DNA of 59,911 bases, counting the filler, from Dugesia japonica (Eukaryota): assembly GCA_001938525.1 (NCBI GenBank). It is 5 parts of 5 records of this genome, joined end to end, with 100 filler letters (N's around TTAATTAATTAA, not from the genome) between each part and the next. Parts side by side here need not be neighbours in the genome. Positions count along the whole stretch, not along the records: positions 26,223 to 36,193 come from MQRL01608534.1; 4 more parts are not named here. The stretch is one strand, 5' to 3'. A model generated the notes under the pieces. The model ran no database searches. It was not told the DNA's origin and worked only from the letters and a program-made list of their open reading frames with translations. The position numbers and the translations under genes were made by a program. Positions 26,223 through 32,452 of the stretch are shown here, piece by piece (position 1 is the first letter of the stretch; each line of letters begins with the position of its first letter).

Positions 26223-26880
26223 AACAAATGTAAAGAAGGGATAATTATCCTTAAAATCTTAAAATGTTATTCTACAATTCATATTCTTATCCAAATATCC
26301 CATATTTTATATATGTTGTGGTATAATTATCGTTTGTAAAATCTTGAGTATATATTTCTCGATAATCAGTGTTTTTGTCAAGGAAACAGAAATAGAATCT
26401 AGATTTTGAAATGTTGAACTCGAGCTTTTATAACTACCATTATATTGTTCACCACTTTGAAATGAAACCAAAATAAGGCTAGGTATTCGACGATCACCAA
26501 AGATTTGTTCCTTATAAAACGATGAACTATCTTTACCCATTTCAAATGCAACGACTTCCCTGGTTCTTATTGGATAAATAGCATTTTGCTATTTAAGTCC
26601 CATTTGATGAGCAGCTAGTACTAAGGGTTCAACTCGTACACGTCTAACCATTAATTTTGCATCCAGTAATACATTTATAAATTCATTATCTGCAGATTCC
26701 AAACAAACATTAGCATCTTTTCATTTCAATCGAATATGAACATTGACACCAGGAATAAGGTATTTCGGTTGACCCCTGAAATCAAGTTGCAAAGAACTAC
26801 ATAGAGATAATTGTTTTGATTTTGCAATAGAATTTTTTCTATCTGCTTCTGATCCATATCCCATTACTGTGAGACATATA
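26223..26880 (-). pseudogene. Polinton/adintovirus major capsid protein (double jelly-roll) fragment
   Basis: LTVMGYGSEA..LQLDFRGQPKYLIPGVNVHIRL..DAKLMVRRVRV...AAHQMGL..NAIYPIRTREV..QIFGDRRIPSLILVSF..YNG; stops present. Confidence 0.82.
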
Positions 26881-26922
26881 TTCTTACTATCACTATTATA
26901 ATAAAAATAAAATAGTAGTAAA

Positions 26923-27420
26923 ATAAAAAATGTCTAANAATATGAATTCTGATTTTCAAAATGAATTAACAATTGAAAATTTACCTAACCTGGTGACAGC
27001 GGTGGCAGATGTTTCAGAAAGAGCTATAGAAAACACTTAAAGAGAATTAAAAGTAGGCAATATGGTACTCATCAAGGTAGAAACAAGAAATAAGAGCCAA
27101 GACAGATTTGAAGGACCTTATCAAATAATTGAGAGAATTCATGAAAGGCGGTATGCGGTAAAAGGAGAAAATAGACTGCGATTAGAAAGAAATGTGACAA
27201 AACTTAGAAAGTTTCTTAAGAAGGGGGATATGAGGAAATAATTATTATTTAATAATTTTAAGCCAATAGAAATTGAGTTAGCTCTGGATGAAGATTTTTA
27301 AAATACTATTTAATAATCATTTCTCTTATTAAGTATAGTTTGTAGTAGTAAAATAAAAAATGTGTAACAATATGAATTCTGATTTGCAAAATGAATTAAC
27401 AATTGAAGATTTACTTAACA
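26923..27420 (+). mobile_element. Miniature/deleted Gypsy LTR element inserted in the Polinton
   Basis: Direct repeats 26923-26989 and ~27345-27420; PBS-like TGGTGACAGCGGTGG; integrase C-terminus (VLIKVETRNK..DRFEGPYQIIERIHERRY); PPT AAGAAGGGGGA. Confidence 0.8.
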
Positions 27421-27496
27421 ATTCCATCCACTCATTGTTCATTTGAGTTAAGTCTATTGTAATATTAAATTTAACGATTGTTTATTTGCAATGAAT

Positions 27497-27797
27497 TTAG
27501 CCTAATGCAGCTAATGCAATTGGTAACAATGCTGCTATTAAGCCACTACCTTGATTATTCATTACGCGTCTCATTGATTTTCTATTTTTTTGTTTACAAG
27601 CGTTAATAACCTTTTTTATGTTTTTTCAATGTTTTTTTAGCTTCGCTCAAATATACAATGCCACGAACAATATTTACAATAATTTCAAGTAAATCATCCA
27701 TAACATATGGTGGGAATGATTGTAAAATTCTCATTCTAAAAGGTTTTGATGATTTAATCAAAGCTGTAAAAATCAGAATGCTTCTTTGTAATTTCAT
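27497..27797 (-). pseudogene. Polinton small basic protein with C-terminal QGSG + hydrophobic tail
   Basis: MKLQRSILIFTALIKS...DDLLEIIVNIVRGIV.LS...LKKHK/(frameshift)..RRVMNNQGSGLIAALLPIALAALG*. Confidence 0.72.
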
Positions 27798-28024
27798 CTT
27801 TATTTATTAAAATAATATATCATTTATTTGTTTATAATAGTTTTTCTGTTCATCATTTTCGGCTTCTTTCCACTTCTTTTTGCAAGTTTTTTAAACATAT
27901 ATGCAATTGTTTCTTCAGTTTTTCCTACCTTTTCTTCTCAAAAGATATCTTTGGACGTTTAAGAGCACCATCAATTACTTGATCAACTACAAACCTCTTT
28001 AATTTTGTCATTCTTTTAAATATT

Positions 28025-29184: not shown

Positions 29185-29862
29185 AAAATTCACAACACGG
29201 ATTCAAAACTTTTACAATGCAAGTACAAAAAATATCAATTTAAATTTAGTTATTTAAATTTCAAATAATTAATATATTACGTTGTGGTTTTTTNNNNNNN
29301 NNNNNNNNNNNNNNNNNNNNNNNNNNNNNNNNNNNNNNNNNNNNNNNNNNNNNNNNNNNNNNNNNNNNNNNNNNNNNNNNAAGAAAGTGGAAGAGCAATT
29401 TAGTAAGACAGGTTTCATTTTCATTAATTTTAAAATTTTATTAATAAATGTCATTTAGGAGTGCTTAAAGACATATTGGAGAAACGACGGATGCTCGATG
29501 AAAAAAAACGGATGTTCCCGGACTCTGTTGTCAATCTGTATATGGATGCTGAATTTTGGTAACCTGGTTGTATGGGGTGCACAAAGTTTAATCTGATGGT
29601 CACTATGGAAGCGCATCAAATTGAACTACAGAATTAGATTAATTATTTTTTTATTATTAATAAAAAAATAAATGTATTATTATTAAGTCTTAGTTTTATT
29701 TATTTAGTTTTTTTATTTAGTTATTTTATTTAGTTTTTTATTTATTTTTTTTATTTAGTTATTATTTACTTAGTTTTTTATTTTAAATAAAACTAACAAG
29801 ATTTAATACGTAAATATCTATTTNAATAAAAATAACATAAAATAAACACTAAGTAAGCAAAT

Positions 29863-30297
29863 TTAGATCGTCTTTGCAATATTTTTAACTTTCCAAATGA
29901 CTCCTACTGAATTAATGGACTTCTTAAAACCTTTAATCTCCATTTGAATTATATATTGACTATCGTCTTCATATTGGTTTTCGTCTCTTTCTTTAAAACC
30001 TATATAAATAACCTCATTGACTGAAACTTGTCTGCTTAATATTGCAAACATGACTTCCAGAATATTTCAATCCTTCTCATGAATTCCAGATAGAAACAAA
30101 CTAAATTTGGCATTTTTATTGTAACTGGTTTCTCAATAATAATAATAAGTTATAATGAAATAAAAAATAATTCCTTTGAAGTCATAGATAATTGAAGGCT
30201 TCAAAAAAAACAACTTTTAATAATNGAAATCTGTAATTTTTCTAAGTTCCACAGTTATATGTAACACATTTTCTTTAGTGAGTTGATTTTCTTCCAT
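29863..30297 (-). pseudogene. Element-borne protein, possible OB-fold ssDNA-binding protein
   Basis: SLFLSGIHEKD*NILEV...YIIQMEIKGFKKSINSVGVIWKVKNI; similar pattern to the 52995-53387 ORF. Confidence 0.45.
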
Positions 30298-30592
30298 TTT
30301 TCAGTTGTAAAAGTGATTAATGTTATGTAAACCTTTGCTTATATACTCGTTGCGATACACACACTCGTTATTTACGAGTTTTCTTTGGTTAATATTTGCT
30401 ATAATTGATATGATTTGTTAATATTTGTTTAAACAGTTATGATTGGTTACCGGGTTTATATACTAGTTGCGATACACACATACTCGTTGTTATTTATATT
30501 TACTATAATTGATATGATTGGTTACTGTGATTATAAAAATAGGACTTGATTTTTAAAATAAATTCACTTTTTAGAAAAAGAATACTTGTAAA

Positions 30593-31117
30593 ATGTTTCT
30601 TTAAAAAAACTGTCCAAAGAGATGAAGGACTTGAAAATGACATTAACTATGAAGGAATAGAAAATATAATGGAAAAATAAATAATAATGAATGAATAAAT
30701 GAAGAAAAACTCTTGAAGATGAAAAAGTGGAAGATACATGTCATGATGATTATGGTGATGATAGTGGTTAAACTGAAATTGAAGACAAAATTTATGAAAA
30801 TTATTATGGTAAGAGTTTAATTTATTATTATTTAATTTAATTCATTTTTAGAATTATCGTTGGAGATATTACATGAAAAGTTTCAAGAATTACTTCATGA
30901 ATATATGCTGTTGATGGTGAATGAATATTTTAATCATTTATTGCAGACAAAAGCAATAGACACGTTTCAGGTTTTGAACAATTTCATCATAGAACTACAA
31001 TCAGATTTCCTTTTCAATGAAAACAAGAATCATTATGAAATCTTAAAAGAAAGAATTTTGAAGTTGATTGAAGAATATCATAAAAAATGTTGTATTAATA
31101 AATGCTTTATTGGATAA
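30593..31117 (+). pseudogene. Unknown acidic/helical element-borne gene with 43-bp intron (30809-30851)
   Basis: GTAAG...TTTTTAG joins ENYY/ELSLEILHEKF in frame; upstream exon has stops. Confidence 0.45.
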
Positions 31118-31371
31118 TTGTTTTCTTTTATTTTTTTATAATTATTAAATAAATAAGGTTTATTTTTTTATAATACTAAGTAAACAAAAAACAATAATTT
31201 GAATAAATGAATTTATGATAACTATTTTTATGAACATACATTTTGCATGGTTANNNNNNNNNNNNNNNNNNNNNNNNNNNNNNNNNNNNNNNNNNNNNNN
31301 NNNNNNNNNNNNNNNNNNNNNNNNNNNNNNNNNNNNNNNNNNNNNNNNNNNNNNNNNNNNNNNNNNNNNNN

Positions 31372-32452
31372 ATTAACCCTATTCAATCATAGAATATTTT
31401 CTTTAAAGTTTTATAAAGACTAATTAGTTATATATGGAAAGGTTCCATGAATTTATGATTTTTATGAAAAAAAAAGTTCTATGATTTTTTCATTTGTAAA
31501 ATATGTTCTCAGCTAATATGCTTTTTATAGACAAATTGCATAAATCAGATATAAATATCAAGGCTATCTCAATGTTTTAATAAAGAATGCAATAGGGATG
31601 CAATATGAATACAATACAGTAAAATGTGCCTGTGAATTTTTCTTGATTTTTTAAAAAATGAAAAAGGTATGCAACTCAGATGCAACATAACAGCAACAGA
31701 CATTGACTAAAAATCAGGCACCTGAGAATTTTAAATATATTTTTAAATATATAAGCTCAACAGCCGTCACTTTGAATTTTTTAATAAATGCAATAGGTAT
31801 GCAACTCAGGTGCAACTCGGATGCAACAAGCATTCACTAAAGTCACGCGCCTGGGAATTTTTATTGTTTTTTTAAATAAATGTAATAGGCATACAACTCA
31901 TAGACAACTCAGATGCAACACACATACACTGTAAATCACCTGCCTCGGATTTTTTATTGACTTTTTTAATAAATGNAATAGACATGCAACATGAATGCAT
32001 GAACACATGCTTGGGAAATTTTAGACTACCCATACCATGCAAAGTATGAAGTCTACCAAAAAAAATTTTTAATTAAATTAAATTTAATTTAATTTAATTT
32101 CCCGCCAAAAATTTTTCTCTCTCAAATATCTAGACTCCCCGCTTCCTCCTTCAAAAAATATAAAAAACTACTCTTCCCACTCAAAACTACTCAAAATTAT
32201 TCAAAAATACATCAAATACTCAAAAATATCATTATTTTCTTATAATTCATCATTTTACTGCATTTTTAACCAAAATAAAAATTTCTAAAAATTATTACGT
32301 CATTTGATCCGATCAAAAATTTTTAGATACCAAAATTCTTGAAAACAAAACTATCCATTAAATCATAGCACAATCGTAAGCAGTTTCCGAGCCCTGGATG
32401 TCGCCCCAAATTGTTCTAAAAAATTGTGCCGTGGCGCCACTATCTACCTACT
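31372..32452. mobile_element. Polinton-like terminal region, copy on capsid/ATPase scaffold
   Basis: TGCAACTCAGATGCAAC repeats, AGACTACCCATACC, TTTCCCGCCAAAA, CACAATCGTAAGCAGTT and terminus CACTATCTACCTACT at 32452, colinear with 23030-25083. Confidence 0.82.

Follow-up and report, generated by a model that had tools for sequence, protein, structure and literature searches.

A close described counterpart of the gene considered here is the TATA-binding protein (TBP) mimic of beta- and gammaherpesviruses (ORF24 of KSHV, the herpesvirus linked to Kaposi's sarcoma; BcRF1 of Epstein-Barr virus, EBV), a viral TBP fold that serves host RNA polymerase II (Pol II) at a modified TATA box, TATTWAA, in the late promoters before structural genes (PMC6541308). 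Nucleocytoviricota likewise encode proteins with a TBP fold. Giant viruses commonly come with an RNA polymerase of their own. Among Polintons, Mavericks and adintoviruses, the Fig. 5 legend of Starrett et al. 2021 (PMC8502044) labels a TBP-like gene for one or more MELD viruses or related elements; the label comes with no mention of a virus, a family, a mechanism or a promoter, and the labels of Supplementary Fig. S2, including those of the Hydra and coral maps, contain no TBP. In this study, we examined a 59,911-nt stretch of the Dugesia japonica assembly GCA_001938525.1 (five parts joined end to end, hereafter the window), in which positions 26223-32452 are, largely as a first-pass annotation had proposed, a decayed and gapped remnant of Polinton/adintovirus type that holds genes for a capsid, a basic protein, an ATPase and a TBP-like protein. 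From this gene and its relatives, we consider it probable that the shortened TBP-fold protein is the element's private factor for recognising the promoters of its capsid, packaging and integrase genes, working through the box YATAAACR, host TFIIB and Pol II. The presumption that a TBP gene in Polintons was new may hold for the family, of which, as of the box, our literature searches showed no description, but does not hold for the bare label in the Fig. 5 legend; Repbase, subscription papers and the rest of the Starrett supplement may hold earlier annotation.

The gene belongs to a well-defined protein family. A search with the family profile among 1.84 billion returned 587 clusters at E ≤ 0.001, 136 of them at E ≤ 1e-10. 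Pfam TBP (PF00352) matches all 119/119 members of the family alignment, which holds 119/153 proteins, those left out being mostly short fragments. The predicted structure of one natural relative, P0001, has a predicted local distance difference test score (pLDDT) of 97.4; its best matches in the PDB are all TBP (Z 13.7, root mean square deviation 2.5 over 148 residues) and the next fold scores Z 7.2. The TBP fold suspected from the first reading is therefore well borne out, and the protein is predicted to adopt the two-repeat saddle of the TBP superfamily. With cellular TBP and TRF (PF00352; human 1CDW, yeast 1YTB) it shares this saddle over 148/150 residues, the acidic C-terminal stirrup and three of the four DNA-kinking Phe; it differs from them in having only about 20% identity, no Phe of the N-terminal stirrup, shortened helices H1 and H2, polar replacements that have become fixed where DNA is contacted, and a branch of its own. 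The structural match to the herpesvirus protein BcRF1 is weak (E 1.9e-3).

Residues were tabulated in yeast numbering mapped through an insect TBP, the numbering and the residue roles being those generally assigned. E186 and E188, which we take to form the TFIIB-binding stirrup, are kept in 106/119 and 117/119 members, respectively. Among the residues that presumably kink DNA, F190 (118/119), F207 (115/119) and F116 (117/119) are kept, while F99 is kept in none (0/119); N69 persists in 96/119, and N159 in 0/119, with Ser or Thr in its place in 118/119. One stirrup, the N-terminal one, is lost, helix H2 is partly deleted with its basic residues at 0-8%, and much of H1 is gone. By its residues, then, the family is not a canonical eukaryotic TBP or TRF with four intercalating Phe, two central Asn and a basic H2, and it retains a putative TFIIB-binding acidic stirrup. 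On the DNA face, four swaps are fixed (V122 to R in 118/119, T124 to M in 119/119, the above change of N159 to Ser or Thr, and L205 to N in 115/119), and the invariance of these new residues speaks for a changed specificity and against decay.

Comparison of coding sequences places the family under purifying selection, with a median ratio of nonsynonymous to synonymous substitution (dN/dS) of 0.17 and a maximum of 0.42 across 84 overlapping, non-independent pairs. These values bear on the suspicion that the gene is a captured host TBP pseudogene or a chance insertion without a role in the element, to which we give almost no credence: all three copies in the window are indeed damaged, but the adjoining capsid and ATPase genes have decayed to the same degree, the family sits on a long branch separate from cellular TBP, and the dN/dS, the count of 136 clusters and the consistent Polinton context effectively refute it. 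The branch was seen in a tree built by a quick method from 60 rows, among them 37 of the family, 11 eukaryotic, 3 archaeal-like and 8 giant-virus-like, with few outgroups whose labels were partly inferred. In this comparison with cellular and giant-virus TBPs, as had been envisaged, a long branch (Shimodaira-Hasegawa-like approximate likelihood ratio test, SH-aLRT, 99) has all 37 rows of the family on one side, apart from the cellular and giant-virus-like rows; no donor lineage of the gene can be named from these 60 rows. The few giant-virus TBPs sampled (labels inferred by way of L001) retain both repeats and fall outside the family.

The first-pass annotation had called for linkage of the TBP-like gene with capsid and pPolB genes. 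Relatives on a large number of independent contigs show linkage with Polinton genes; the window copy is dead and lacks pPolB. Among metagenome loci, the best 80 of 126 confirmed stretches, a Polinton core gene is present in 36/80, in 26/34 loci of at least 3 kb and in 12/15 of at least 5 kb. Of the 80 loci, 26 have an ATPase gene, 17 an integrase, 13 a minor capsid, 10 a capsid, 7 a pPolB and 7 a protease gene, where integrase, pPolB, protease and ATPase were named by Pfam and the capsid labels rest mainly on gene order and likeness. Relatives of the window element add an rve integrase, minor capsid and pPolB, the last also present in L084. The position of the TBP-like gene differs between elements, and loci picked by their ATPase instead carry it in 2/6 cases. 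The gene is a lineage-wide feature and not peculiar to the D. japonica genome. In L053, a GT-AG intron of 40 nt (376-415) seems to interrupt it, in keeping with transcription by Pol II in the nucleus. A viral contig collection yielded no family member save one giant-virus TBP (L001), no capsid relative and no TFIIB-like relative; it held one distant ATPase locus, which had neither the TBP-like gene nor the box pattern. Six Polinton-like contigs (L084, L085, L086, L087, L088, L089) sit in bacterial metagenome-assembled genomes (MAGs), probably as eukaryotic contamination.

The second line of evidence is the box. We scanned 120 nt upstream of genes by an unbiased ranking of 6-mers on deduplicated upstreams, with shuffles as the expectation. 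ATAAAC was the top 6-mer, found in 86/92 upstreams of virion and integrase genes against 9.2 expected and in 1/92 in antisense; it precedes 24/24 ATPase and 9/9 capsid genes. Flanking bases extend it to YATAAACR, its spacing clusters 31-45 nt before the ATG, and it occurs in 19/20 rough lineage groups. The virion genes of these elements thus carry a putative modified TATA box of the kind that marks herpesvirus late promoters. Before the TBP-like gene itself the box is at chance level (6/63 against 5.0 expected), and before genes of the cluster that flanks it the count is 3/20. Its first base is C in 35/96 boxes and varies with the form of the TBP-like protein, being T in 40/53 boxes with the short and C in 25/43 with the long form, the two forms corresponding to two kin groups. 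Where promoter zones overlap coding sequence, box-bearing synonymous codons are favoured (Ile-Asn, 20/35 against 42/310, p 3e-8; a second codon comparison, 22/26 against 16/35, p 0.003). That the box is a by-product of conserved amino acids is ruled out by this preference and by the 49/106 copies outside open reading frames (ORFs). Two further gene clusters carry the box, C4 (e.g. L027:83-646; exonuclease-like by eye, without a Pfam match) in 8/11 and the PLA2-like C14 (L071:1084-1521) in 7/8, and may represent late genes.

The distribution of the box over gene ends (not deduplicated) bears on a different role for it. Because the genes are arranged in tandem, the box frequently coincides with the end of the gene before, so it could be a 3'-end signal, or the protein could bind the box or the termini and repress (a silent provirus) or serve replication or packaging; the KSHV mimic acts at an origin as well (PMC6541308). 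The box also occurs at 21/87 junctions before non-virion genes and near 24/99 ends without a known neighbour. We regard this group of explanations as distinctly improbable, however, given that 63/101 ends preceding a virion gene have the box against 2/16 convergent ends, that the spacing to the ATG fits a core promoter and that the kept TFIIB stirrup fits activation. The same gene-end counts rule out a general poly(A) signal.

The bases of the box in turn bear on who reads it. Of the TATA box, the downstream half is recognised by the N-terminal repeat of TBP; this repeat is the most changed part of the TBP-like protein, and the unusual C of the box lies in that half. The T-form of the box, which we take to be the C(-25) variant of the TATA box, is one base from canonical TATA, so that host TBP could serve it. 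Cellular TBP binds the C(-25) variant through a Hoogsteen pair (PDB 1QN3; PMC8643651). Host TBP or TFIID might then read the box, and the viral protein might be a decoy, sequestering host TFIIB or competing with the host at its promoters; the TFIIB stirrup as its best-kept surface and the loss of one N-terminal DNA-kinking Phe would both suit such a decoy. We nevertheless think this unlikely: it leaves the invariant new DNA-face residues unexplained, the C of the box is strict and no other ATAAAN word, ATAAAA and ATAAAT included, is enriched in the same upstreams, many boxes begin with C, and elements without the gene lack the box. The earlier suggestion that the factor may redirect or compete with host Pol II initiation is accordingly narrowed, the shared upstream box favouring redirection and competition being the less favoured of the two.

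Elements with and without the gene provide a comparison. In L084, which has the TBP-like gene, the box precedes 7/7 virion and integrase genes, whereas it precedes 0/6 in L086 and 0/8 in G001:C86, both of which lack a gene of the family; L087, L089, L098 and L099 were too short or broken to serve as controls. G001:C86 (L088, L091:803-2070, L097) is a Polinton contig of 22.9 kb that was assigned to a bacterial MAG. It carries overlapping genes for a TBP-like protein (189 aa, Pfam 1.9e-11), which lacks the acidic stirrup and falls outside the mini-TBP family, and a TFIIB-like protein (252 aa, Pfam 4e-6, with a zinc ribbon). A TBP without the stirrup beside an own TFIIB-like gene is suggestive as a contrast to the mini-TBP. 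The link between gene and box might also arise by descent alone, with another element-encoded or host factor reading the box. The controls are few and all distant, the elements carry further small unassigned genes, and the family forms one side of one branch and so has a single origin. A shade less likely still than the decoy, in our estimate, this reading faces the observation that the neighbouring small genes vary by lineage while box and TBP-like gene together span 19/20 groups, and a TBP fold is the most economical partner for a TATA-like box.

The promoter-factor reading that we favour would run as follows. The TBP-like gene would be expressed early from a host-type promoter, and its product would bind the YATAAACR box; the conserved acidic C-terminal stirrup would dock host TFIIB and hence Pol II, which would start on the genes of the virion module. 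Having lost the N-terminal stirrup and the basic patch of H2, the protein may escape control by TFIIA, TAF1, Mot1 and Brf1. The outcome would be an early-to-late switch from one small gene, like that of the herpesvirus TBP mimic. ORF24 is a large protein within a complex of six members, whereas the Polinton gene is single, encodes about 150-170 aa and keeps the TFIIB stirrup (PMC6541308 for the former); genes for such a six-protein viral pre-initiation complex were not noticed in the Pfam matches of 25 cluster representatives, although no dedicated search was made. By analogy, the Polinton mini-TBP likely works as the herpesvirus mimic does, outside that complex. In its fuller form, the proposal of a mini-TBP of altered specificity in a large branch of animal Polintons, which reads YATAAACR (a box awkward for host TBP), uses host TFIIB and escapes the regulators of TBP, while a second branch has arrived separately at the same outcome with its own TBP and TFIIB pair, stands at about even odds.

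Several findings weigh against this picture. Besides the near-canonical T-form and the boxes near ends before non-virion genes and at convergent ends, the informative gene-less controls number only two, both distant kin and one of them a 10-kb partial contig; with controls so few and distant, gene and box could owe their association to common descent alone. The window's own ATPase has no intact box upstream. Moreover, only one RNA run, X16, was stranded (UFC1 served to fix the strand), and it showed no early-late transcription cascade: its reads lean sense on the TBP-like gene, antisense on the ATPase and are even on the capsid; 1611/1691 of these reads derive from copies less than 95% alike.

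As for the locus itself, genes in the window were placed with profiles from natural relatives, and capsid, small basic gene, ATPase and TBP-like gene follow in the order first described. The window is AT-rich (GC content mostly 0.2-0.35) and contains 23 N runs. The major capsid gene is a broken fragment at 26223-26906 on the minus strand (profile E 4.8e-62, positions 119-357 of 414), with 4 stops in 228 codons and 43-48% identity to the capsids of L008, L015 and L053; its N-terminal part is missing and a scaffold gap cuts its C-terminal part. It is a putative double jelly-roll (DJR) capsid gene, the DJR-like match of a relative being weak (E 0.039). At 26913-27419, a 77-nt duplication (26913-26989 and 27343-27419, 93.5% identity) flanks an insert whose translations read like the tail of a retroelement integrase. 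The small basic gene of the virion module (27500-27797, minus strand, E 1.7e-17, 3 stops) has a relative with an adenovirus mu/pX-like tail and a sub-threshold Adeno_PX match (E 0.011); an ATAAAC box at 27830-27835 (minus strand) lies 33-38 nt upstream of its start. The packaging ATPase of A32/FtsK type (28039-28629, minus strand, E 1.5e-69, 2 stops) is 54-65% identical to its nearest relatives, of which L002 has a Pox_A32 match (6.4e-7), and a second ATAAAC box at 28044-28049 lies inside its 3' end. Head-to-head with it, TBP-like copy A (28743-29181, plus strand, E 3.7e-52 to P0001) spans two frames with a frameshift near 28975 and shows 68-71% identity to P0001.

Beyond copy A, the former description fared unevenly. 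The gene taken to be SSB-like (single-stranded DNA-binding) exists as a broken gene at 29875-30183 on the minus strand, with 2 stops, which weakly matches a cluster (E 3.8e-4) that flanks the TBP-like gene in 22/80 loci; its SSB identity is unproven, since it has no Pfam match. The spliced ORF did not hold up: at about 30600-31130 on the plus strand a possible decayed frame shows GT..AG at 30809-30851 and no homologue. The subterminal arrays were recovered as a tandem array with a period of about 92 nt at 31646-31990 (31776-31990 in the narrower delimitation). Polintons end in terminal inverted repeats with AG...CT and a 6-bp target duplication, and the described AG...CT terminus was recovered in part, as a 14-nt CT-ending terminus at 32439-32452, which has 4 occurrences in the window against 0.03 in shuffles; the four termini (at 41, 25083, 32452 and 49545) share one orientation, and neither the opposite end nor an element bounded by both ends was found within the window. 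Scaffold gaps at 29294-29380 and 31254-31371 separate the capsid-ATPase-TBP block from the terminus. Profile searches found no match to pPolB, minor capsid or PX anywhere in the gapped window and none to integrase or protease inside 26223-32452; two weak integrase matches elsewhere in the window look retroelement-derived. In relatives, integrase, minor capsid and PX sit between the basic gene and the capsid, a place from which they are absent here. The element thus shares the capsid and the A32/FtsK ATPase with described Polintons, Mavericks and adintoviruses (PMC8502044), and the adenain fragments elsewhere in the window may be a further common feature; it differs from them in showing no pPolB, integrase or minor capsid in the gapped sequence.

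Two further TBP-like copies lie in the window. Copy B (21335-21763, minus strand) keeps a 142-aa open frame with an internal deletion near its C-terminus, 80% DNA identity to copy A and a Pfam TBP match of 1.7e-10; its PDB matches are TBPs only (15 sequences), and three close relatives are 62-69% identical. Copy C (52794-52964, minus strand) is a fragment; within 52794-53252 it is accompanied by the gene that also flanks copy A. All these copies are broken and have lost their function. A second terminus at 25070-25083, in the same orientation, follows arrays of 27-41 nt and is followed by a basic-gene remnant (25087-25338, minus strand). Copy B is directed away from the terminus closest to it and lacks an adjoining ATPase, which, together with the one-way termini, suggests rearranged or mis-scaffolded remnants. 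Near-identical duplications (97-99%) on both sides of N gaps, at 24005-24638, 7293-7792 and 8592-9743, are likely assembly artefacts. Broken fragments of adenain, the maturation protease, lie at 55078-55363 (minus strand) and 56096-56300 (plus strand), with relatives that match Peptidase_C5. In a DNA run (X3), 23,852 contigs match 3.07 kb, pointing to many diverged copies; UFC1 had no coverage in that run, so no copy number could be derived. The host UFC1 gene (43065-43562) has an uninterrupted coding frame and is expressed in three RNA runs; on its 5' side, a joint of GT..AG type and unaligned-looking ends of reads (43042-43049) presumably reflect a trans-spliced leader of planarian type, in line with a flatworm host.

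In conclusion, the window copy is only a fossil of the proposed mini-TBP and box system; the gene family is live and widespread. The timing of Polinton capsid genes, and the existence of a true viral phase in animals, is a long-open question, to which a promoter factor and its matching box would bring a six-base signature sorting early from late genes and one small protein to assay. If true, the system would rank as the smallest among those for viral late transcription, form an orthogonal pair of TBP and promoter and mark the virion-producing phase of Polintons, and a natural TBP with changed specificity would offer a means to study how TBP reads DNA.

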